From assembly GCA_003978465.1 (NCBI GenBank), contig QNZS01000073.1, positions 1 to 10,004 of the forward strand: a DNA stretch of 10,004 bases, given 5' to 3'. The stretch is from Sulfurimonas sp. Its GTDB lineage: Bacteria; Campylobacterota; Campylobacteria; Campylobacterales; Sulfurimonadaceae. The notes beneath the pieces were generated by a model. It did not search any database. It saw only the letters and a program-made list of their open reading frames with translations, and was not told the origin of the DNA. Shown one piece after another: positions 1 to 10,004 of the stretch (its first letter is position 1; every line of letters starts with the position of its first letter). The translations under genes were made by a program, and so were the position numbers.

Positions 1-306
1 GAAGATCTCGGAGCCTCTCAGTTTAGAATACTATGGGAAATTGACTTACCTCTGGCTTCTCCGGGGATTGTTGTTGGTTCTCTTCTCAGTTTTGTCCTAG
101 CTGCTGGTGCTTTAGCTGAATCTAAATTGTTAGGTGGACAGGCTATTATTGTTTTTGCAGACGAGGTAGAAACAGCATTTACATATGGCCAGAACTGGCC
201 ACTTGGTTCAGCCCTAGCAATGATATTAATTCTGATTATAGGAATTCTTGCATTTTTCTCGATTACTAAGATAGATTTAGATACAATGATGGGGAGAAGA
301 CATTAA
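1..306 (+). CDS. ABC transporter permease, 3' partial (PotB-like, spermidine/putrescine-family inner membrane component)
   Basis: Frame 1 is open from base 1 to TAA at 304-306. Translation EDLGASQFRILWEIDLPLASPGIVVGSLLSF... carries the EAA-loop signature of ABC importer permeases (E-x-LGAS...F..I.LP...PGI) followed by a hydrophobic C-terminal TM segment. The stop overlaps the next permease start (TAATG). Confidence 0.8.
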   Translation, partial: EDLGASQFRILWEIDLPLASPGIVVGSLLSFVLAAGALAESKLLGGQAIIVFADEVETAFTYGQNWPLGSALAMILILIIGILAFFSITKIDLDTMMGRRH

Positions 307-1100
307 TGAGATCATCACGAAAAACCGTGTACTTTCTTCATGCATATGGAGTATTGGCTATTTTCTTTCTTTATTTACCACTTGTTTCCGTTTTTTACGC
401 TTCTATCTCAAAAACGAGATATTTATCCTTTCCAATACGGAGGTACGCGACACATTGGTATTTGAAGGCATTAGAAAGTCCTACAGTCTCAAATTTGGTC
501 GAAACATCGCTGAAAATAGCTATAATTGTCACAGTCATTTCTATGCTAGTTGGTTTCTTTGGGGCCTTAGCATACGCAAGATATCACTGGAAGTATAGAA
601 ACGTATTTCAAAAAATCATTATTTTGCCAATTTTTTTTCCACAAGCAGTGCTTGGTCTGGCGTTGTTGATTTGGTTTAACTCCATTGGATTAATACCTTC
701 TTGGAAAACTGCTGTTGTGGCTCATCTTGTATGGATTGCACCCATTTCAACATTAATAATCGCTATCCGTGCATATAGCTTTGATCCTGCACTTGAGGAA
801 GCGGCCAGAGATATGGGAGCAACTACTTGGACAATTATGCGTGAAATTACAGTACCCTTGCTAATGCCTGGAGTCATATCTGCTGGATTATTCTCTTTTC
901 TTCTAAGTTGGGGGAATTTCCCATTATCTTTATTTACTACTGGTGCAGACTCTACACTACCTGAATGGCTTTATGCGAAAATGGTTTCGGGTTATTCGCC
1001 TTTAGTTCCATCTGTGGGAATTATTTCTATCAGTGCCTCAGTTATTCTGATAATCATTGCATATACTGTAACTAAATTAGTAGCATCAGTTAGTAAGTGA
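306..1100 (+). CDS. ABC transporter permease (PotC-like, polyamine/amino-compound importer family)
   Basis: 264 aa, about six hydrophobic segments, EAA motif EEAARDMGATTWTIMREITVPLLMPGV. Translationally coupled to the upstream permease. Confidence 0.85.
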   Translation: MRSSRKTVYFLHAYGVLAIFFLYLPLVSVFYASISKTRYLSFPIRRYATHWYLKALESPTVSNLVETSLKIAIIVTVISMLVGFFGALAYARYHWKYRNVFQKIIILPIFFPQAVLGLALLIWFNSIGLIPSWKTAVVAHLVWIAPISTLIIAIRAYSFDPALEEAARDMGATTWTIMREITVPLLMPGVISAGLFSFLLSWGNFPLSLFTTGADSTLPEWLYAKMVSGYSPLVPSVGIISISASVILIIIAYTVTKLVASVSK

Positions 1101-1135
1101 CTAATGACAAATTTGCTTATAAAAACTAAAAACTC

Positions 1136-1141
1136 AAGGAG
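1136..1141 (+). promoter_or_regulatory. Shine-Dalgarno (AAGGAG) for the SDR gene
   Basis: AAGGAG 5 nt upstream of ATG at 1147. Confidence 0.6.
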
Positions 1142-1146
1142 AAAAA

Positions 1147-1926
1147 ATGTTTACTAGCATCAAGGGGCGTTCTGTTATCGTTACAGGTGCATCCAAAGGT
1201 ATAGGAAGGGGAATTGCCAATGTATTTGCTTTGCAAGGTGCAAAGGTGATGGTGGTGGCCCGTGGAGAGGAGGAGGCAAAAGCAACTGTTGATGAAATCC
1301 GTTCAAAGAAAGGGATTGCGGAAATGCAGTTGTGCGATGTGACAGATTGGGAAGCGGTGGAGGAAATGGTGACAGCAACTGAATCGGAGTTTGGAAGTGT
1401 TGATATACTTTGCGCAAATGCGGGGATATTCCCTCAAACTAAAATATTTGAAATGGATCCAGAGGAGTGGGACCAAGTTATGAAAACTAATCTGAAAAGT
1501 GCTTTTTTGTGTGTAAAAGCCTGTATTCCGCAATTTAAAAAGAAAAGAAATGGGCGGATTATTCTAACTTCATCTATAACTGGGCCCGTAACTGCTTACC
1601 CAGGCTGGTCTCATTACGGAGCTTCCAAATCGGGACAACTGGGATTCATGAAGACCGCAGCGATGGAACTCTCGAAGTATGGTACTACTATAAATGCTGT
1701 ATTGCCTGGTAATATTTTCACAGAAGGATTACAGGATTTAGGACAAGATTATTTAGATTCCATGGCGGCTACAATTCCTCTAAAACGTCTTGGTGTGGTT
1801 GAAGATATTGGTAACGCAGCATTATTTTTTGCTTCTGATGAAGCCTCCTACATCACAGGTCAGACTTTGATAGTAGATGGCGGACAAATTCTTCCTGAAT
1901 CTCTGGAAGCAATTGAAGAAATATAA
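1147..1926 (+). CDS. short-chain dehydrogenase/reductase (classical SDR); candidate amino-alcohol/aminoketone dehydrogenase
   Basis: N-terminal Rossmann motif TGASKGIGRGIA (TGxxxGxG), NAG motif (CANAGI), catalytic S (TSSITG) and YxxxK (YGASKSG), C-terminal IVDGG. About 13-aa extension beyond the usual SDR end. Confidence 0.85.
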   Translation: MFTSIKGRSVIVTGASKGIGRGIANVFALQGAKVMVVARGEEEAKATVDEIRSKKGIAEMQLCDVTDWEAVEEMVTATESEFGSVDILCANAGIFPQTKIFEMDPEEWDQVMKTNLKSAFLCVKACIPQFKKKRNGRIILTSSITGPVTAYPGWSHYGASKSGQLGFMKTAAMELSKYGTTINAVLPGNIFTEGLQDLGQDYLDSMAATIPLKRLGVVEDIGNAALFFASDEASYITGQTLIVDGGQILPESLEAIEEI

Positions 1927-1944
1927 CAAAAATGGAGAAATATT

Positions 1945-2949
1945 ATGGTTGATAGTCAGCAATCTCATTTCATGCTGATAGATCATCTTGGTGAATTAGC
2001 TAATTCTTCACTTAAATTGTGGGAGGTCCCCGGTGAAGCTTCAGCAAAATTGATCAATTTCTCAGAAAATGCAACATATCTTGTTTCGTCGTCTAAAGGT
2101 TACCGGTCTATTCTAAGAATTCATCGTGAAAATTACCACACTAAGCCTGCAATAGCATCAGAAATAGCTTGGACTCGTGCTTTGAACAAAGAAAGTGAAG
2201 TTGAAACGCCAAACATCATTCCGGGGAGAGATAATCAAGATATTCAACAAGGCAAAGTTGATGGTTTGAAAAACAACCGTTACATGGTTATGTTCGAGTA
2301 TGTTGAAGGAGAAGAACCCAATGAAGAACAGGATCTCGTTGGACCATTTGAAGAACTAGGTGAAATTAGTGCTAAAACCCACATACATTCCATTGGCTGG
2401 AATCGACCAAATTACTTTGAAAGGCTTGAATGGAACATAGATGCTTTTTTTGGTTCAAAGCCAATTTGGGGCAAATGGCAAGATGCACCAGCAATGGAAA
2501 AACCTGTTTTAAAATTGCTAATTCAGCAGGAAGATCTTATTGTTAAGCGTATAAAAAAATTTGGAAGGGGATGTGGAAAGTTCGGTCTTATTCATGCTGA
2601 TATGAGACTAGCAAATCTATTGATTCATGAAGGTAAAACTCGCCTTATTGATTTTGACGATTGCGGAATAGGCTGGTTCTTATATGACTTCGCTGCTGGG
2701 ATCAGTTTTATGGAAGATAATCCAACAGTTGAAACACTAAAAGATGCTTGGGTGAGGGGATATAGAAATGTTAGTTCTCTTTCGAATGAAGAAGAAAAAG
2801 AAATAGATACTTTCATCATGCTCCGTAGAATGGCGCTATTGGCATGGATTGGTTCTCATTCAGATACTGATTTGGCCAAAGAACAAGGGCCTGAATTTAC
2901 GAAAGTCTCAGGAGAACTTGCTGAAAAATTCATGATAAAAATGGGGTAA
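1945..2949 (+). CDS. APH/choline-kinase-fold phosphotransferase; candidate amino-alcohol kinase (1-amino-2-propanol or ethanolamine kinase)
   Basis: Brenner motif LIHADMRLANLLI (HxDxxxxN) and Mg-binding IDFDDCGIG (D-F-D), typical of PF01636 kinases. N-terminal ...NATYLV...ILRIHRE nucleotide-lobe pattern. GGAGA RBS 6 nt upstream. Confidence 0.75.
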   Translation: MVDSQQSHFMLIDHLGELANSSLKLWEVPGEASAKLINFSENATYLVSSSKGYRSILRIHRENYHTKPAIASEIAWTRALNKESEVETPNIIPGRDNQDIQQGKVDGLKNNRYMVMFEYVEGEEPNEEQDLVGPFEELGEISAKTHIHSIGWNRPNYFERLEWNIDAFFGSKPIWGKWQDAPAMEKPVLKLLIQQEDLIVKRIKKFGRGCGKFGLIHADMRLANLLIHEGKTRLIDFDDCGIGWFLYDFAAGISFMEDNPTVETLKDAWVRGYRNVSSLSNEEEKEIDTFIMLRRMALLAWIGSHSDTDLAKEQGPEFTKVSGELAEKFMIKMG

Positions 2950-3019
2950 CTCCTTGATGTTAAAATTAGTAACGCTATCAATTCTAATCAGTATTAATAT
3001 TAAGGTTTAACCTCAAAAA

Positions 3020-3634
3020 CTATTTATTTTTAATCAAATCATCAATAGCACTTTGAGCAATGACCATATCTTCCTTTCTTCCAGACATAAAAACTCTTCC
3101 GGAAGCACCAATCATTTGTACATCATTGATTATAGCTTGCGGTGCAGCTCTTTCAGCCTCATTGGCTGCTTTGCAAGCAAACAAAGCTGGAGTCATTTCA
3201 CAAACGAGTAATGATGATCCAGAGATCAACATTGAAGCTGATCTTGTCCGATTTAAAATAATAGAATGTTGATCTGATATATTTTCAATAATATCACGGT
3301 ACAATATCTTTGGAAGTAGTTGATCAGAAGGTTTTGCACTGATACCATCCAGAATGGCTTTCCCAGCAGACTCCAGTTCAGCTTCAATGCTTGAGTGGAG
3401 TTCCAGCAATCCAAACTGACGTTCAGTAAACAAAATTCCTGGTTCCATGTCAGGTGAGGCTTTAAGTGCCAAATCTACTATTCTATGGATTGATAATGCT
3501 GGTGCAACTTCAACAATTAAACTATGTTCACCAGCATAAACTGGATATCCTCTTGCACGAGTTGGACTACTTAAGTAAGCAGCAAACTGTGGTTGTAAGT
3601 CCAAGATTGGTAAATAGACCCTCAGTTCAGTCAT
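3020..3634 (-). CDS. tandem BMC-domain shell protein (BMC-T), possibly permuted EutL/PduB-like
   Basis: 204 aa with two consecutive segments following the BMC-domain pattern (beta-strand / A-rich helix ...ALKAS..., ...ACKAANEAERA... / G-rich hairpin / A-rich helix). N-terminal LPILDLQPQF resembles the EutL N-terminus. Paralogue of ORF 4763..5371. Confidence 0.55.
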   Translation of the reverse strand: MTELRVYLPILDLQPQFAAYLSSPTRARGYPVYAGEHSLIVEVAPALSIHRIVDLALKASPDMEPGILFTERQFGLLELHSSIEAELESAGKAILDGISAKPSDQLLPKILYRDIIENISDQHSIILNRTRSASMLISGSSLLVCEMTPALFACKAANEAERAAPQAIINDVQMIGASGRVFMSGRKEDMVIAQSAIDDLIKNK

Positions 3635-3687
3635 TAATATTTATTCTTGTATATTTTATTCAAAAATAATTGAGCATAATCTTATTG

Positions 3688-3969
3688 TTATTTCCCGTCA
3701 AGAGAGAAGTATTTCCCTAGGTCGGTATGGGGCCGTGGTATCACATGAACAGAAATGAGTTCTCCTACTTCATTAGCAGTTTCTGCTCCTGCTTCAGTTG
3801 CTGCCTTTACAGCGCCAACATCACCTTTTATGATAACTGATACAAGGCCATCACCAACCTCTTCCCTTCCAGCAATGGTTACATTAGCTGCTTTAACCAT
3901 TGCATCCGCAGCAGCAAGTGATGCGACATAACCTTTTGTTTCAATCATTCCTATAGCTTGATTGGACAT
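3688..3969 (-). CDS. BMC-H hexameric shell protein (PduA/EutM/CcmK family)
   Basis: 93 aa. [26 protein letters not shown]...[13 protein letters not shown]...VHVIPRPH is the canonical PF00936 signature. Confidence 0.92.
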
Positions 3970-3976
3970 GAGACTT

Positions 3977-3982
3977 TCTCCT
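3977..3982 (-). promoter_or_regulatory. Shine-Dalgarno (AGGAGA on minus strand) for the BMC-H gene
   Basis: Plus-strand TCTCCT, 7 nt upstream (in the mRNA) of the BMC-H ATG (3967-3969). Confidence 0.6.
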
Positions 3983-4069
3983 ATTTGTGTTTTGGCTTTT
4001 AGGCCAGTTTGCGCCGCTATTGTTTGCTAACGGCAATGGATCGATTTGAAGAAGTTTTTGCCATTTACA

Positions 4070-4312
4070 TTACTCCTTCTCATCAATAGAACCAATGATT
4101 AGAGAATCAATTGGTGCCTTGAATTCTGTAAAATAACCGGCTGCAACAGAACCTTGAGTTAACAATACCGCTTCTCCTACGGCACATCCTAACGGGTCGT
4201 AAGCAATAATATTTTCACCGCTTTCAACTTCTACTTCCAAATACCCTCCCTTGGGAAGCTTATCAACATGTTTAGATGACCAAATTTGGCCTTTTACCCT
4301 TCCTCTGATCAT
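4070..4312 (-). CDS. BMC vertex protein (BMC-P pentamer, EutN/PduN/CcmL family)
   Basis: 80 aa. MIRGRVKGQIWSSKH...GEAVLLTQGSVAAG matches the PF03319 size and pattern (N-terminal IxGxVxG). 4-nt overlap with the upstream gene. Confidence 0.85.
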   Translation of the reverse strand: MIRGRVKGQIWSSKHVDKLPKGGYLEVEVESGENIIAYDPLGCAVGEAVLLTQGSVAAGYFTEFKAPIDSLIIGSIDEKE

Positions 4313-4755
4313 ATTTGTGTCCTTTCCATTTTTATCCCCTTTTTACGTAACTCATCTTTTGCCAAAGGGGTTAATTTAGCATTTTTTAAAACCTGCAAAA
4401 CAGTAATATTTTCATCCAATTTTGCTATATCATATTCTGTAATCAAACCATCTTCTATTTTGTTTGAAGTAGGATGAGAAGTACAAGATCTACTATTTAA
4501 ATTAGCAGATGATGGCACATCTAAATGAAAAATAATATCCCCATTTTCAATGTTTGAAAATCCATCAGTTTCTCTTACAATATTCAATATTTTTTTAACA
4601 AATTTCATTAGATCTTCATCCGTTCTGATAGAGACTATTACTTCTCTAGTAGTTTTCTGATCCAACGAAACTGACTCCTTGTTGATTGAAGCTATCTCTT
4701 CTACCAACAATTCACGTATTATTTTTCTAATTTCTTTCCCCACAGTTGGCCTCAT
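4309..4755 (-). CDS. hypothetical 148-aa protein with N-terminal amphipathic helix (encapsulation-peptide-like); BMC-associated protein of unknown function
   Basis: Embedded between shell genes and coupled to the vertex gene. N-terminal GKEIRKIIRELLVEEIASI has i/i+3/i+4 hydrophobic periodicity. No catalytic motif recognised by eye. C-terminal ...LKNAKLTPLAKDELRKKGI. Confidence 0.5.
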   Translation of the reverse strand: MRPTVGKEIRKIIRELLVEEIASINKESVSLDQKTTREVIVSIRTDEDLMKFVKKILNIVRETDGFSNIENGDIIFHLDVPSSANLNSRSCTSHPTSNKIEDGLITEYDIAKLDENITVLQVLKNAKLTPLAKDELRKKGIKMERTQI

Positions 4756-4762
4756 CTATTGT

Positions 4763-5371
4763 TCATTGTTTTCGTAAGGCCAACTCAGCAGCTTCACGCG
4801 CGTTACGTATCTCAGCTTCGCTACCAGACAGGTAAAGTCGACCATTTGCACCAATCATACGATAGTCAATTATTTTTATATTAGCTTTTTTTTCTGCTTC
4901 ATTGCAGGCTAAAATTGCGTAGGATGCTGGTTGGCATTCCAATAGATAAAGAGACTCCCCTCCTAAAATCATCGAACCTAACTTATTTCGATTAATTAAA
5001 TAAGCATGTTGGTTTTCGACTCGCGTAACTATCTTTGAAGCAAGAATAGTTGCTGGCTTAGCATCTTTGGGAGTCGCTCCTAAACTTTTCAATACTGCTT
5101 CTGCACTTGCTTTGACTTCTGCTGTAGAATCGGCATGAAACTCTAGATACCCAAATTGACGTTCTACAACCAAAATGCCAGCCTTAACATTTGCGCCTTT
5201 CAAAGCAACATCTGTTAAAGCCTCAATGTCTAAACCAGGTGCAATTTCAATGATCTGAGACGCCATATTTTTACGAGGCAATGAGCCTCTCATCCAAGTT
5301 GCAATATAAGCCAAAGTTTGAGGTTGCAACTGATCAATGAATATAAAAGAACGTAATTCAGCCATGTACAC
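4763..5371 (-). CDS. tandem BMC-domain shell protein (BMC-T), paralogue of 3020..3634
   Basis: 202 aa. Two BMC-like segments (SQIIEIAPGLDIEALTDVALKGANVKA...; ...AILACNEAEKKANIKIIDYRMIGANGRLYLSGSEAEIRNA). Shares the N-terminal ELR...D(Q)LQPQ..AY motif with the other BMC-T. Confidence 0.55.
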   Translation of the reverse strand: MYMAELRSFIFIDQLQPQTLAYIATWMRGSLPRKNMASQIIEIAPGLDIEALTDVALKGANVKAGILVVERQFGYLEFHADSTAEVKASAEAVLKSLGATPKDAKPATILASKIVTRVENQHAYLINRNKLGSMILGGESLYLLECQPASYAILACNEAEKKANIKIIDYRMIGANGRLYLSGSEAEIRNAREAAELALRKQ

Positions 5372-5374
5372 AAA

Positions 5375-6952
5375 TCATTTTTTCAGAACATTCTTAAGCT
5401 CTTCCGCAATCAATTTACGGAGTTCTTCTCTGTTCACATTATCAATTGAGAAACTGGTGCTTGTCGAGGTTGTATCCACTCGACGAGACTTTGGTGAACC
5501 TGGTACTCCATCTGATGGAGACCTTGGCAATGGACCGTCTAATGATAAAGACAGTTCATTAAATTTACCAAAAGCTACAGACGGATCTGAATTATAAGCA
5601 ATTTGTGTCCAATGAATTAGATGTTGTGGACCAAGATTTTCACCAAGTGAACTCCTCCCATAAAATCCAGTACCTATGGTAAATGATGGAGCCAGATTGG
5701 TGTTAAACCCTGATGCCCCTAAACTACAAGAGGCATTTACTACTACTCGATAACATTCGACTCTTGATGCAAAATCAAGAATCATTCTCTCGTTTTGACT
5801 ATGTATGACAGCCGAATGACCAGCACCCGTTGCTCTAAGCGTAGCCCTTGACTGAGCGATTGCTTGTTTGGGACTGTTTGCAACATAAAAAGACAGTACA
5901 GGGCAAAGTTTTTCTCTAGCTAACGGTTCTTCAATACCGATACTGTTAATTGGTGTTACAAGGATTAGTGTTTTTTTGGGAACCCGGATGCCGCATTCAC
6001 GTGCAATCCAAACTGCATCACGGCCTAAAGCCTCAACGTTAAAGCCATTGGGGTGAAAAAGATAATTGCGTATTTGTACTACCTCATTATTATTGCAAAT
6101 ATAGGCTCCTTCATTTTTCAAACTTTTGCGAAGGGGTTTGTCAACATCCGTCAAAGTGATGAGGTTAGATTCACTGGTACAAAGTACGGAATTGTCAAAA
6201 CTTTTAGATGTCACAATTTGATTTGCTGCCAATGCAATATCTGCCGATGAATCAACGAATACAGGCGCATTACCTGGACCAACTCCTATGGCCGGATTAG
6301 AAGAAGAATAAGCTGCACGAACCATTGCTGTACCACCAGTTGCCAGGATCACGTTCGTTTTTGGTGATGACATGAATTCTTCTATCAACGGAATAGACGG
6401 GGTTTCTAATACTTGTATTGCCCCCTCAGGCGCTCCAGAAGAAATTGCAGCCTCTGTCAAAATTCGAACTGCATCTATACATGATTTCTTTGCTGCTGGA
6501 TGTGGGCTAATAACAATTGAGTTTCGTGTAATTAGTGCAAGAATAATTTTAAAATTCAGTGTTGAAATAGGATTTGTCGATGGAATCAAAGCAAATATTA
6601 CTCCCGCAGGTCTTGGGATTTCTACAATTTTCTTTTCTTCTTTAACACGCATCGAAACAAGGTCTTGCTCTCTATAATAATCTACTAATGGTTTTGCTGT
6701 GAACTCATTTTTCAGCTTCTTGTGTGAAACTACCCCAAAACCTGTCTCAACAACAACTTGTTCGGCCCATTCCCCCGCATGACTATGGGCAACGTTGGCT
6801 ACGGCATCAACAATTTTCATTGTTCTTTTTTTATCGAATCTCTGAAATATATATGATGCCCACCGCGCTCGCTCTAAAACTATGTCAGCACGCCCCGATA
6901 AAGATGCTTGAGATTCTGAGATATCAACTAGAGTTCTGATTTGTGGTTCCAT
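5375..6952 (-). CDS. CoA-acylating aldehyde dehydrogenase (PduP/EutE-like) with C-terminal extension: P/S/T-rich linker plus amphipathic helix
   Basis: 525 aa. ALDH-fold blocks (IVISPHPAAKKS..., ATGGTAMVRAAY..., active-site context FDNSVLCTSESNLI, ...GTGFYGRSSLGEN). The last ~55 aa are GPLPRSPSDGVPGSPKSRRVDTTSTSTS...NREELRKLIAEELKNVLKK. The start codon overlaps the upstream stop (TGATG). Confidence 0.85.
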   Translation of the reverse strand: MEPQIRTLVDISESQASLSGRADIVLERARWASYIFQRFDKKRTMKIVDAVANVAHSHAGEWAEQVVVETGFGVVSHKKLKNEFTAKPLVDYYREQDLVSMRVKEEKKIVEIPRPAGVIFALIPSTNPISTLNFKIILALITRNSIVISPHPAAKKSCIDAVRILTEAAISSGAPEGAIQVLETPSIPLIEEFMSSPKTNVILATGGTAMVRAAYSSSNPAIGVGPGNAPVFVDSSADIALAANQIVTSKSFDNSVLCTSESNLITLTDVDKPLRKSLKNEGAYICNNNEVVQIRNYLFHPNGFNVEALGRDAVWIARECGIRVPKKTLILVTPINSIGIEEPLAREKLCPVLSFYVANSPKQAIAQSRATLRATGAGHSAVIHSQNERMILDFASRVECYRVVVNASCSLGASGFNTNLAPSFTIGTGFYGRSSLGENLGPQHLIHWTQIAYNSDPSVAFGKFNELSLSLDGPLPRSPSDGVPGSPKSRRVDTTSTSTSFSIDNVNREELRKLIAEELKNVLKK

Positions 6953-8229
6953 CAGTGTATACTCCTCCGGTTTCTGACCCCAAGGACTTCCTCTCGTGCT
7001 TGTTCAATTCCTATTTGCACCCTTCCTAAAAGTTCCTCACACTCCGACTGTGTCATTAACAAACCTGGTTTGAACTGAAGCACACTTGGGTCAAGTGCTG
7101 AAAAAATTGCCCAAACACCGTTTTCATAAAGATATTTCATAACCGGTTTTGCACCTTGTTCATGACTGAACTCTAAACCCATAATGAGACCGTGTTGACG
7201 AATACCTATAAAGAAATCCGAATACTCTTCCATAATTTCATCCAAACCTGATCGAATATAATCAGAAATAAAATGAACTACAGACCGAACTTCTGGACGT
7301 TGGACGATTTCAAGAGTTTTCATTGCTACCACACATCCAAGCTCTGCCCCACCCATCGTTGACATATGACCAAAACCATCTTCTTTTAACCAGCCACTAC
7401 ATTTTTCTGAAATTAAGACACAGGCAATTGGGTACATACCTCCAGAAATTCCTTTGCCGGTAACCATAATGTCAGGCTGGACTTTATACTTAGTACATCC
7501 CCAAAGTTCTCCTGTACGCATTAGACCTGTTTGAACTTCATCAGCTATATATAAGGTGTCGTATCGTTCACAAAGTTGTTTGACTGATGGAAGGTATCCT
7601 TCCTCTGGCATTGGGAAACCATATGTTGCTGGGATAGTTTCCATAATTACTGCAGCCACGTCTCGTCTTTTTAGAGCATCTTCCATTGTGTTGAGATCAT
7701 TGAACGGAACTTGGACAAATTCACCAACAGTATCTTCCGATAAAAATAATTTGGAAAAACGGTCATCTCCAGTTTTAACAGCCAGTCCTGTGTGACCATG
7801 ATAAGCTTTGATTATTGACACAATTTTTCTTCTCTGTGTGGCGTGACGTGCAGTTTTAAGCGCAATATCAACAGCTTCTCCGCCCCCTGAACCATATGCT
7901 GTATATCTCAACTCCGGACCAGGTGCACTCTCAGCCAAAGCCTCTGCTAAGGCAGTCCGTGCAAGTGCCGGAAAATGATGATTACCCATATCAAAGCGAG
8001 AAGTCCCAGCTTTTAGTACCTCAACCAACTCTGGATGTCGGTGCCCCAAATTATAGGTTCCTCCATTTAGATGGACATCAATCAAACGCCGACCATCCAT
8101 ATCATGAAGATAATATTTCTCTCGATGATCGATCACAAGATCAATCCCCATATCTTGCCAATCTTGTGTTTTTCCAGGATTCCAGAACGTTTTAGAACGT
8201 TCTAGAAAATCAATTTTTTCTTGACTCAT
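6952..8229 (-). CDS. class-III aminotransferase-fold PLP-dependent enzyme; candidate amino-alcohol O-phosphate phospho-lyase (or omega-transaminase)
   Basis: 425 aa. YGSGGGEAVDIALKTAR (PLP phosphate pocket), DEVQTGLMRTGELWG (class-III DEVQTGxGRTG block), candidate Schiff-base Lys in DIMVTGKGISGG. Confidence 0.8.
   Translation of the reverse strand: MSQEKIDFLERSKTFWNPGKTQDWQDMGIDLVIDHREKYYLHDMDGRRLIDVHLNGGTYNLGHRHPELVEVLKAGTSRFDMGNHHFPALARTALAEALAESAPGPELRYTAYGSGGGEAVDIALKTARHATQRRKIVSIIKAYHGHTGLAVKTGDDRFSKLFLSEDTVGEFVQVPFNDLNTMEDALKRRDVAAVIMETIPATYGFPMPEEGYLPSVKQLCERYDTLYIADEVQTGLMRTGELWGCTKYKVQPDIMVTGKGISGGMYPIACVLISEKCSGWLKEDGFGHMSTMGGAELGCVVAMKTLEIVQRPEVRSVVHFISDYIRSGLDEIMEEYSDFFIGIRQHGLIMGLEFSHEQGAKPVMKYLYENGVWAIFSALDPSVLQFKPGLLMTQSECEELLGRVQIGIEQAREEVLGVRNRRSIH
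6962..6968 (-). promoter_or_regulatory. Shine-Dalgarno (GGAGGAG) for the aldehyde dehydrogenase, inside the 3' end of the upstream gene
   Basis: Plus-strand CTCCTCC 9 nt upstream (mRNA sense) of the ATG at 6950-6952. Supports translational coupling. Confidence 0.6.
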
Positions 8230-8288
8230 TCTCTTTCATAGACAAGATGTGATTTAAGACGCAGGTCAAAGAGTTTTTCTAGCATCGA

Positions 8289-8302
8289 TAGTATTAATAC
8301 TA
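8289..8302. repeat. 14-bp perfect palindrome TAGTATTAATACTA in the operon upstream region (candidate operator)
   Basis: Self-complementary sequence about 60 bp upstream of the first operon gene. Overlaps the candidate -10. Confidence 0.4.
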
Positions 8303-8325
8303 AACATTGGGTATATTCCATTCAA
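8297..8325 (-). promoter_or_regulatory. candidate sigma70-type promoter of the minus-strand metabolosome operon (-35 TTGAAT, 17-nt spacer, -10 TAGTAT)
   Basis: Read on the minus strand: TTGAAT (plus 8320-8325), 17 nt, TAGTAT (plus 8297-8302), about 65 nt upstream of the ATG at 8229. Overlaps a 14-bp palindrome. Identified by eye only. Confidence 0.3.
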
Positions 8326-8384
8326 ATAACTATGTAAATAAGGTTGATAAAGGAAAATAATTTTTTTAAGAATCATATTGCGAC

Positions 8385-9614
8385 CTATGTATTTTGAATA
8401 GTTTTAACATAGTTTGCCCACCACACCATCATTTTTCTTCTTTCTTTTAGATACTTGTTTCTATTGTATCTATGTATTTTATTCAGTTCCGTGCATGCAA
8501 GTTGTTCCTCTATAACATTATGATACCAGAGACCGCTTTCACTCAATACCTCAGAAGCAAGAGTTCTGAGACCATTGATAGTGTTTCTTCCCGCGTATCC
8601 TAATCGATTTGAAAAATATAACAGTGTGTTTTCACTCATTGCTTTTTGTGAGTTACGGACTTGAGTAAATACATATCCATTCTTGCCGGAATATTCTTGC
8701 ATTTCTTTTAAGATACAAACTGCTTGAGAAGAAAGAGGAACATAATGTTCGCCTCTCATTTTCATTCTTGTTGATGGAATCACCCAAAGGGGTTCAGCAC
8801 AATCAATATCAAACTCACTCCAATCAGCAAAACGTAATTCTGAAGATCGAACGAAGGTTAATATAAGAAAGTTCATTGCAAGCACTGTAGATAGGTTTGT
8901 TACTTTGTCAGCTTTCATTCTTGAAAGAAATTCTGGAAGTTCTGAGATTGGAATTGAACTATGTGATTTTGGTTCCGGTTTTACAAAGGTCTTGTTTAGT
9001 CCTTTTGCTGGGTTGTTTATGCAAAGTTCATTAGTTTTTGCGTAGTTAAAAATTGATTCAAGTCTTTGCCGAATTCTATAACAGGTTTCGTGCTTCCCTA
9101 CGACTTCCAGTTTTTTTAACATTGAAATTACATCCTGTTTGTTGATCTTTACAATGGGTATTTCACCAAGATATGGAAAAACGTGGATGATAAGAGAATT
9201 GAATACAACCTTTGAATATTCCTTTGTCCATAAAGTTTCTTGTCTAACGTGCCATTCTTGGGCAACTTGTTGAAAAGTAAACCCTTTAATTTCTTCACGG
9301 CGTTTCTTTTTATCATAATTTTCTATATGCAAGCTACTCCTAAATCTTTTTTCATCAAGTGGATTGATCCCCTCCTTTATTTTTTTGTTTGCTTCATAAC
9401 GCCTAGATCTTGCTTCGGGCAATTTAACGTTTGGCCATTTCCCAAAAGATAATACTTTCTGTTTCCCTTCAAACCAAAATTGTAATTGCCAGTATTTTTT
9501 CCCATCAGGGTAAATCCTTAGGTACATGCCATCACCATCTGTCAATTTGTATTGTTTTTCTTTTGGTTTTGCCCGTTTAATTGCTAGCTCAGTAAGTTTA
9601 TTTGTACGATTCAT
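8385..9614 (-). CDS. int: tyrosine site-specific integrase, P4-like with DUF4102-type N-terminal arm-binding domain
   Basis: 409 aa. The N-terminus LTELAIKRAKPKEKQYKLTDGDGMYLRIYPDGKKYWQLQFWFEGKQKVLSFG is the typical P4-family integrase N-domain. The C-terminus carries box I R (LTFVRSSELRFADWSEFD), K (RMKMRGEHYVPLS), box II N-G-L-R, ...QLACTELNKIHRYNRNKYLKERRKMMVWWANY with the catalytic Tyr in HRYNR. Confidence 0.88.
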   Translation of the reverse strand: MNRTNKLTELAIKRAKPKEKQYKLTDGDGMYLRIYPDGKKYWQLQFWFEGKQKVLSFGKWPNVKLPEARSRRYEANKKIKEGINPLDEKRFRSSLHIENYDKKKRREEIKGFTFQQVAQEWHVRQETLWTKEYSKVVFNSLIIHVFPYLGEIPIVKINKQDVISMLKKLEVVGKHETCYRIRQRLESIFNYAKTNELCINNPAKGLNKTFVKPEPKSHSSIPISELPEFLSRMKADKVTNLSTVLAMNFLILTFVRSSELRFADWSEFDIDCAEPLWVIPSTRMKMRGEHYVPLSSQAVCILKEMQEYSGKNGYVFTQVRNSQKAMSENTLLYFSNRLGYAGRNTINGLRTLASEVLSESGLWYHNVIEEQLACTELNKIHRYNRNKYLKERRKMMVWWANYVKTIQNT

Positions 9615-9662
9615 GAAAAATTAATTATGTTGTATGTGTAAATTACCACTAAACTTTAATAG
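9468..9662. repeat. direct repeat copy A (~195 bp; int codons 1-49 plus ~48 bp upstream)
   Basis: Identical to 9810..10004 except for one mismatch (about 9563 vs 9905, K-to-I in the fragment). Coordinates read by eye, +/-1. Confidence 0.85.
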
Positions 9663-9809
9663 TTTACCACCATTATATAATACTAATTAACTATATATAT
9701 ATAATAAATATATCATATAGTTACAATGGATTATATATTGACCAAATGAGAAAAATTATATCTTATATCCTTTTTAAGGGAAACGAACCCGCGTTTAAAA
9801 TGATGCAAA
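9663..9809. other. AT-rich 147-bp spacer between repeat copies, containing a (TA)n tract
   Basis: ...actatatatatataataaatatatcatatag... with very low GC. No ORF. The sequence diverges from int immediately at the repeat boundary. Confidence 0.5.
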
Positions 9810-9957
9810 CTTCAAACCAAAATTGTAATTGCCAGTATTTTTTCCCATCAGGGTAAATCCTTAGGTACATGCCATCACCATCTGTCAATTTGTATTGTTT
9901 TTCTATTGGTTTTGCCCGTTTAATTGCTAGCTCAGTAAGTTTATTTGTACGATTCAT
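9763..9957 (-). pseudogene. truncated integrase 5' fragment (first 49 codons of the int N-domain, then out-of-context tail)
   Basis: MNRTNKLTELAIKRAKPIEKQYKLTDGDGMYLRIYPDGKKYWQLQFWFE is identical to the int N-terminus except K18I. It then reads into the AT-rich spacer (VCIILNAGSFPLKRI*). Confidence 0.75.
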
Positions 9958-10004
9958 GAAAAATTAATTATGTTGTATGTGTAAATTACCACTAAACTTT
10001 AATA
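9810..10004. repeat. direct repeat copy B (runs to the window edge; may extend further)
   Basis: See copy A. Truncated by the window end, so the true repeat length is unknown. Confidence 0.85.

Follow-up and report, generated by a model that had tools for sequence, protein, structure and literature searches.

A class-III aminotransferase-fold enzyme in an RMM-type microcompartment locus of Sulfurimonas sp. is a probable O-phospho-amino-alcohol phospho-lyase

Results

The stretch of DNA analysed here, called the window in what follows, covers 10,004 nucleotides of a Sulfurimonas sp. assembly (GCA_003978465.1, contig QNZS01000073.1, positions 1 to 10,004; 38% G+C), and the gene in question encodes a class-III pyridoxal 5′-phosphate (PLP) enzyme of 425 residues, hereafter AT, which we take to be probably a phospho-lyase and not a transaminase. 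The gene lies on the minus strand (6952..8229; ATG at 8229, TGA at 6954-6952). A preliminary description of the sequence had ascribed class-III aminotransferase motifs to its product, and the search against Pfam bears this out: AT matches PF00202 (Aminotran_3) over residues 30-404 with 244 bits (gathering cut-off 30.5) and E = 2.3e-72. It is followed on the same strand by the gene of a CoA-acylating aldehyde dehydrogenase (ALDH) of 525 residues (5375..6952; PF00171; NCBIfam AdhE-N 433 bits, EutE-type 406 bits). The stop-start overlap and the internal ribosome-binding site that the same description had reported between the two genes are both seen. The overlap is a TGATG (6950..6954, minus strand), in which the TGA of AT (6954-6952) and the ATG of ALDH (6952-6950) have one base, an A, in common; the Shine-Dalgarno sequence GGAGGAG for ALDH (6962..6968, minus strand) stands within the 3′ end of the AT gene, 9 nucleotides upstream of the ALDH start codon. 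The minus-strand 3′ end of the AT gene reads CCGGAGGAGTATACACTGATGG.

Orthologous loci were gathered in a scan that kept one genome per species, which gave 80 loci, and their content was compared by tblastn with all proteins of the window. In 70 of 78 orthologous loci the ALDH gene begins before the AT gene has ended, with 1 or 4 nucleotides in common; in Mycobacterium smegmatis the two share 4 nucleotides, and GGAGGA stands ahead of the overlap. Since the overlap is kept in these loci and in M. smegmatis, the junction in the window is no chance feature, and co-expression of AT and ALDH is a conserved trait. On a contig assigned to Ca. Neomarinimicrobiota (L002 2246-3127), the ALDH match begins about 470-880 nucleotides past the AT stop, with no overlap, a gap for which an insertion, a frameshift or faulty assembly could account. 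AT had further been described as the first gene of the operon. The gene order in the window agrees with this, but in most orthologous loci a kinase gene lies directly upstream on the same strand; AT is the first gene only in the rearranged, integrase-flanked version of the locus found here. Promoter and terminator scans, upstream of AT and between the convergent genes of the window, gave no score above shuffled expectation.

To compare the active site, we aligned AT with PatA (YgjG), ArgD and GabT of E. coli K-12, with human ETNPPL (6TOR) and with Arthrobacter A1RDF1 (5G4I); the register of the alignment was checked against the published YgjG numbering, which was reproduced for K300, D271, Q274, T332, E243, R426 and K183. 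The PLP machinery of AT, including Gly116, is intact. Lys259 (codon 7453..7455, minus strand as all codons given below), Asp230, Gln233 and Thr291 correspond to YgjG K300, D271, Q274 and T332, that is, to the lysine of the Schiff base, the aspartate at the pyridine nitrogen, the glutamine at O3′ and the threonine that reaches the PLP phosphate from the partner subunit. All four are strictly or almost strictly conserved in 121 orthologs, Lys259 without exception.

The residues that hold the 2-oxoacid tell the transaminases of this fold from AT. In YgjG, E243 and R426 are strictly conserved, and their ion pair opens to bind the alpha-carboxylate of 2-oxoglutarate (PMC4244111). This Glu-Arg pair has been termed the "gateway system"; the lyase ETNPPL has a histidine at the R141 position, and the lyase PbfA is devoid of all three residues (PMC8154272, supplement). 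In AT, the gateway Glu (GabT E211, YgjG E243) is lost, as PATYG with Thr202-Tyr203 (7621..7626) stands in place of QGEGG; the gateway Arg (GabT R398, YgjG R426) is replaced by Gln385 (7075..7077), within the motif VLQFKPG; and the Arg or Lys that binds the distal carboxylate (GabT R141, OAT R180, YgjG K183) is replaced by His146 (7792..7794). Two positions past Gln385 there is a basic residue, Lys387 (7069-7071), and a GNHHF motif brings in His84-His85 (7975..7980), His84 being the counterpart of YgjG Q119, which contacts the far end of putrescine. His84, His85, His146, Thr202, Tyr203, Gln385 and Lys387 are all invariant among the 121 orthologs, as are 193 of the 425 AT columns overall. Neither the gateway Glu-Arg pair nor the distal Arg/Lys of a 2-oxoacid transaminase is therefore found in AT.

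The known phospho-lyases have undergone parallel replacements. At the gateway Glu, gateway Arg and R141 positions, where the window enzyme has Thr, Gln and His, ETNPPL has Cys, Lys and His and A1RDF1 has Thr, Lys and Asn; the basic residue two positions past the Arg site is K in ETNPPL, R in A1RDF1 and Lys387 in AT. In a comparison of specificity residues between phospho-lyases and transaminases, all three 2-oxoacid-binding residues of AT are thus replaced, in parallel with ETNPPL and A1RDF1, whereas the proven transaminases nearest to it in sequence (PatA, ArgD and PigE, 4PPM) keep QGEGG and the Arg. His84, His85, His146 and Lys387 are candidate ligands for a substrate phosphate.

By overall similarity, the best match of AT among solved structures is E. 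coli PatA/YgjG (4UOX; E = 6e-48, 28% identity). The two share loop lengths and PLP-binding residues, for instance GHR(H/N)P and DEVQTG, and differ where YgjG E243, R426, K183 and Q119 become Thr, Gln, His and His in AT. None of the transaminase cut-offs of NCBIfam is reached: AT scores 223 bits of the 410 required for argD, 223 of 850 for PigE and 221 of 612 for PatA. A function as putrescine aminotransferase, considered because of the best PDB and NCBIfam matches and of a Pot-type transporter in the window, was rejected on account of the replaced E243, R426, K183 and Q119 and of a score of about one third of the cut-off.

Membership in the ETNPPL/AGXT2L1 family was likewise rejected, given the low identity, another NCBIfam profile group and another branch of the tree. 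AT is 26% identical to ETNPPL and 23% to A1RDF1, both below the 28% for PatA, and neither 6TOR nor 5G4I is among its 60 best PDB matches. Two models of kinase-AT fusions, PRK06148 and PRK06149, are matched by ETNPPL over their C-terminal half (643 and 499 bits) but are missing from the 25 NCBIfam models on which AT scores best; the window and Mycobacterium enzymes match the PatA, PigE and ArgD models best, with about 220-230 bits. In a neighbour-joining tree, which is indicative only, being without bootstrap support and of limited family sampling, AT sits deep in a clade with Gln at the gateway Arg position, beside PatA-like sequences that bear Glu and Arg, and ETNPPL and A1RDF1 fall outside. 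The ETNPPL/A1RDF1 group resembles AT in its class-III fold, in the lost gateway and in its genomic link to APH-like kinases, although the His at the R141 position is found in ETNPPL only. The fusions of the two groups have their domains in opposite order: in PRK06149 the kinase comes first, the kinase of the window aligning to profile positions 43-302, and in P0122, a fusion protein of the AT lineage, it is C-terminal. These comparisons place AT, as far as sequences tell, in a lineage separate from ETNPPL and nearer to putrescine aminotransferase; because identity, profile group, tree position and fusion domain order all differ from those of ETNPPL, the loss of the gateway looks convergent between the two.

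The closest described system is the RMM1 (aminoacetone-utilisation, AAUM) microcompartment locus of M. smegmatis, which we reached through the sequence of its kinase (6EF6). Its genes run AT, ALDH, BMC-T, an unknown protein of 173 residues, BMC-P, BMC-H, BMC-T, APH, SDR (short-chain dehydrogenase) and GntR, with an amino-acid permease upstream, and the order from AT to the second BMC-T is identical in the window. There, on the minus strand, AT and ALDH (65.7% identity over 417 residues, and 49%, to the M. smegmatis proteins) are followed by a tandem-domain, CcmP-like BMC-T shell protein (4763..5371; PF00936; NCBIfam CcmP E = 7e-62; 67%), a 148-residue protein of unknown function (4309..4755; 26%, E = 1e-11, to the 173-residue protein), a pentamer protein BMC-P of the EutN/CcmL type (4070..4312; PF03319, E = 2.5e-16; 51%), a hexamer shell protein BMC-H (3688..3969; PF00936, E = 3.4e-27; 76%) and a second tandem-domain BMC-T (3020..3634; 58%). 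Searches of PDB and Pfam with the 148-residue protein gave no match, apart from which there is a weak match to TIGR02536. Every window protein of this comparison has its counterpart in that locus; for ALDH, the shell proteins, the APH kinase and the SDR, the M. smegmatis proteins find their best matches in those of the window. AT, at 65.7%, is hence the ortholog of the RMM "aminotransferase". Of the likeness to the RMM and ETNPPL/AGXT2L1 families suggested for AT in the preliminary description, the first part thus stands and the second, as family membership, does not. The M. smegmatis enzyme has the same His84-His85, Gly117, His146, Thr202-Tyr203, Gln385 and Lys387.

The remaining genes lie on the plus strand, convergent to AT, ALDH and the shell genes. 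Two PotB/PotC-like ABC permease genes occupy 1..1100 (4-303, cut by the window edge, and 306-1100), a call based on NCBIfam PotC (E = 8e-35) and on tblastn with a Roseovarius permease. They are followed by an SDR (1147..1926), ortholog of the RMM aminopropanol dehydrogenase (PDB 6CI8/6CI9, E = 4e-91; 56% identity to the M. smegmatis SDR), and by an APH-fold kinase (1945..2949; PF01636), so that the kinase reported to be co-located with AT is indeed present, on the opposite strand. This kinase is an ortholog of (S)-1-amino-2-propanol kinase: it matches PDB 6EF6 over its full length with E = 2.2e-76, the next PDB match being at E = 1e-11, and is 39% identical to the M. smegmatis protein. The structure 6EF6 is named aminopropanol kinase (PMC7314540). 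A P4-type tyrosine integrase (8385..9614; PF13356, PF22022, PF00589) lies upstream of AT on the same minus strand. The arrangement departs from that of M. smegmatis, where kinase and SDR come after the shell genes on the same strand; here these two genes and those of the ABC permeases are found on the opposite strand, the integrase flanks the locus, and the transporter is PotABCD-like, M. smegmatis having an amino-acid permease and, as regulator, GntR.

Close relatives of AT number in the thousands. The 120 best share 80-98% identity with it and stem for the most part from marine Alpha- and Gammaproteobacteria; its identity to the ATs of the 80 proteobacterial loci is 75-86%. The recurrent gene order of these loci, nearly always on one strand, is permease, SDR, APH, AT, ALDH, BMC-T, unknown, BMC-P, BMC-H and BMC-T. 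In most of the 80 the APH gene is directly upstream of AT on the same strand, and the SDR is also present in most. As an example, the cluster of Roseovarius aestuarii additionally holds an AraC regulator, a binding protein, an ATPase, an isochorismatase-family gene and a B12-dependent diol dehydratase. The isochorismatase-family gene occurs in 38 of the 80 loci and the diol dehydratase in 20, downstream of the shell genes; in one contig (L005 15120-18127) and 19 other loci the latter is a fused large and medium subunit just after the shell genes. A diol dehydratase in the same cluster fits a common propionaldehyde intermediate, and one microcompartment may process two sources of propionaldehyde.

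Among the enzymes of the locus AT is by far the most conserved, with 75-86% identity among Proteobacteria and 66% to Mycobacterium, compared with 44-60% and 39% for the kinase and 55-68% and 49% for ALDH. We also observed that the locus has neither the phosphotransacylase nor the alcohol dehydrogenase of the usual metabolosome core.

The window contains the acylating ALDH, BMC-H, BMC-P, two BMC-T(dp), APH kinase and SDR expected of an RMM locus, and the locus is of the RMM2 type of Axen et al. (PMC4207490). The diol dehydratase genes by which RMM2 is recognised (Axen 2014) are absent from the window, where the inverted kinase module occupies their position. Otherwise the content equals that of the RMM2 loci of Alpha- and Gammaproteobacteria, in which the module is usually colinear with the operon: in most proteobacterial loci the transporter-SDR-kinase module shares the strand of the operon, which it immediately precedes, and is accompanied by an AraC regulator, whereas it is on the opposite strand here, and the inversion contrasts with the colinear order of about 75 other loci. 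RMM2 outliers with a PF13356+PF00589 integrase beside the locus have been reported in Ca. Marinimicrobia and Epsilonproteobacteria (Sutter et al., PMC8217296), and the window shows the same situation. The adjoining integrase marks the locus as a mobile island of low GC content (38%); no tRNA attachment site for the integrase was found in the window or in three related contigs (L001-L003). These three contigs share the arrangement of the window with its inverted module at 91-100% protein identity, a range that narrows to 97-100% when only integrase, operon genes and kinase are counted, and their source metagenome-assembled genomes are labelled Gammaproteobacteria and Ca. Neomarinimicrobiota. 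Such near-identical contigs under different labels indicate either recent horizontal transfer or binning ambiguity.

As had been noted before, AT has no obvious encapsulation peptide (EP). The 55 N-terminal and 36 C-terminal residues outside its conserved core contain none, and the corresponding termini of relatives outside microcompartment loci measure 53-74 and 8-83 residues, so that the termini of AT are no longer than these and form no extension; the M. smegmatis AT is likewise without an EP. ALDH, on the other hand, ends in an amphipathic EP-like helix, REELRKLIAEELKNVLKK (5378..5431, minus strand), which lies behind a linker rich in Pro, Ser and Thr and has the top helical hydrophobic moment of the protein, and the M. 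smegmatis ALDH carries an equivalent C-terminal helix. A strongly amphipathic EP-like helix, as judged by its hydrophobic moment, is also present at the N-terminus of the 148-residue protein (KEIRKIIRELLVEEIASI, residues ~6-24), and the 173-residue protein at the same locus position in M. smegmatis has an N-terminal helix of the same kind. The 148-residue protein might serve cargo without an EP as scaffold or adaptor. As AT has no EP of its own, it may be carried into the shell by piggy-backing on ALDH or on the 148-residue protein, or may stay outside.

Relatives of AT were then sought more widely among 1.8 billion cluster representatives. The signature "PATxG ... Q" is confined to the closest ~30 representative clusters, down to ~35% identity, beyond which QGEGG and R appear again. 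The closest non-orthologous relatives of AT are fusions of AT with APH or with DUF6206 domains, and most clade members whose context could be examined are beside, or fused to, an APH kinase or DUF6206. Thus P0122 (795 residues) carries a C-terminal APH/choline-kinase domain, P0123 (Ruegeria meonggei, 738 residues) and several proteins of 1,100 residues are AT-DUF6206 fusions, P0129 and P0132 are followed by an overlapping or abutting DUF6206 gene, P0172 adjoins a divergently transcribed one, and on a Pseudomonas plasmid the order is AT relative, phosphotransferase, MFS transporter. For P0127 the available stretch of contig, which stops shortly after the gene, shows no kinase-type neighbour, and the contig of P0144 is too short to show one. 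The APH partners themselves are homologs of the kinase in the window, with E from 1e-53 to 1e-74. A kinase-AT module kept through fusion, adjacency and co-divergence is what would be expected if AT consumes the product of the kinase.

DUF6206 (PF19709) was observed as fusion partner or neighbour in P0123, P0158, P0166 and P0185 and on three contigs (L088 679-1536, L090 10305-11222 and L092 4162-5064). It occupies the position held by APH kinases in other AT relatives, and its invariant residues, G-E...K-R...D-x-Q-x-S-N-W...D-x-x-T-P, recall kinase motifs. Comparison by hhalign with an APH alignment gave a probability of 0.14%, however, and phmmer against PDB no match.

Two further contexts were observed. 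On a Phyllobacterium zundukense plasmid (L084 7706-10263), a 56%-identical AT relative lies within an ABC transporter operon of the oligopeptide type, after a gene of the alkaline-phosphatase family and near phnF, a context that suggests phosphorus scavenging from phospho-amine compounds. A metagenomic contig (L091 4144-12161) has two tandem AT-APH pairs around an 834-residue amino-acid permease with a weak Usp-domain match, followed by a HAD phosphatase, and is a duplicated, non-microcompartment version of the kinase-lyase module.

Discussion

Three chemistries have been proposed for the RMM enzyme, namely methylglyoxal-forming transamination, lactaldehyde-forming transamination and phosphate elimination by a phospho-lyase. 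The RMM locus type has already been catalogued, and the phospho-lyase hypothesis already published: Mallette and Kimber are reported to have put forward the RMM "aminotransferase" in J Biol Chem in 2018 as a candidate propanolamine-phosphate phospho-lyase. What is added here is the residue-level argument, the APH/DUF6206 fusions and the separateness from ETNPPL.

Taken together, the sequence and gene context, on which our verdict rests, make it likely that AT, the signature enzyme of the RMM-type microcompartment for utilisation of aminoacetone and 1-amino-2-propanol, is not a transaminase but acts on O-phospho-amino-alcohols as a PLP-dependent phospho-lyase and supplies ALDH with propionaldehyde. 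The preference for phospho-lyase chemistry expressed in the preliminary description is therefore supported, by the replaced 2-oxoacid-binding residues and by the orthology and adjacency of the kinase. In the pathway that we envisage, the ABC transporter would import an amine, the SDR would interconvert aminoacetone and 1-amino-2-propanol, and the APH-fold kinase would yield 1-amino-2-propanol O-phosphate. AT would then form the external aldimine on its Lys259-bound PLP and abstract the alpha-proton; the phosphate would be expelled by 1,2-elimination and the released enamine would hydrolyse to propionaldehyde and ammonia. Finally, the translationally coupled, EP-tagged acylating ALDH would turn the aldehyde into propionyl-CoA. 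Both the lyase reaction and the identity of the substrate are what we infer from the active-site residues and the gene neighbourhood.

Several points weigh against this interpretation. By overall similarity the best matches of AT are the transaminases PatA, ArgD and PigE. The Ser/Thr position that binds the PLP phosphate is a glycine, Gly117, and the gateway Arg position is Gln, as opposed to Lys in ETNPPL, A1RDF1 and PbfA. The phosphate-binding residues are proposed from the alignment only, and an AlphaFold2 model of AT, built with 28 orthologs, was too poor for a fold search or for residue geometry (mean pLDDT 52, pTM 0.44). The transporter is of the polyamine (Pot) type, and the true substrate could differ from aminopropanol. 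With no EP on AT, the enzyme, and with it the formation of the aldehyde, may lie inside the shell or outside it. In the literature, our search found no enzymatic assay of any member of the AT lineage.

The transporter is also the first argument for the alternative that survives best, a phospho-lyase acting on another physiological substrate, be it O-phosphoethanolamine, which would give acetaldehyde, or another phosphorylated amino alcohol brought in by the Pot-type system. A PotABCD-like transporter in the window against an amino-acid permease in Mycobacterium, and a kinase that shares no more than 39% identity with its M. smegmatis counterpart, compared with 66% for AT, would both suit such a shift of substrate, and a phospho-lyase studied long ago in Pseudomonas took both ethanolamine and aminopropanol phosphates. 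We nevertheless regard this alternative as unlikely, because most loci contain the SDR, which in the window is orthologous to the M. smegmatis RMM SDR with 56% identity, and because the diol dehydratase that a quarter of the loci possess suggests a C3 aldehyde.

Less probable still, and in our judgement quite improbable, is a true transaminase whose product aldehyde would then be acylated by ALDH. Both versions of it are in print: transamination of aminoacetone to methylglyoxal (Axen 2014, PMC4207490) and of 1-amino-2-propanol to lactaldehyde (Ravcheev 2019, PMC6620236). The class-III aminotransferase fold, the putrescine and acetylornithine aminotransferases as best PDB and NCBIfam matches and the completely intact PLP-binding residues all agree with it. 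However, the gateway Glu-Arg and the distal Arg/Lys that would receive the 2-oxoacid acceptor are invariantly replaced, no NCBIfam transaminase model comes near its cut-off (for PatA, 221 of 612 bits), and a transaminase leaves the conserved ortholog of aminopropanol kinase and the AT-kinase fusions without a role. In the lactaldehyde scheme the kinase protein, AutD, is treated as a phosphotransferase on lactyl-CoA (PMC6620236), yet aminopropanol kinase is the name given to its ortholog in M. smegmatis (PDB 6EF6).

Another PLP chemistry on a non-phosphorylated substrate, either a PbfA-like elimination of water and ammonia or a racemase/epimerase reaction, with the kinase serving some other purpose, would accord with the absence of the gateway Arg from PbfA and several class-III racemases and with the 185 bits that AT scores on the NCBIfam PbfA model, but it deserves the least credence of all, since an APH kinase or DUF6206, as neighbouring gene or as fusion partner, recurs among the relatives examined, and a racemase would not supply the aldehyde dehydrogenase with which the gene overlap is conserved.

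Few metabolosome types have an aldehyde-forming signature enzyme that no one has assayed, and the RMM is, as far as our literature search showed, one of them; for this enzyme the evidence from residues and context argues strongly for a phospho-lyase; Gln385, Lys387, His146, His84/His85 and Thr202 are candidates for mutation. The labels "acetylornithine/putrescine aminotransferase" on thousands of genes are probably wrong, and annotation transfer from ETNPPL would miss the AT lineage. Beyond the microcompartment, there is about an even chance that AT represents a second class-III phospho-lyase lineage, which evolved independently as a branch of the PatA/ArgD-like transaminases, with its own loss of the Glu-Arg gateway and with GNHH, YHGH, IPAT(Y)G and Q-F-K-P as its signature, forming with APH or DUF6206 partners a family of kinase and lyase modules of which the microcompartment enzymes are one branch. 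If this is true, the lineage would constitute a large uncharacterised family of amino-alcohol catabolism modules, and DUF6206 would be a new small-molecule kinase.

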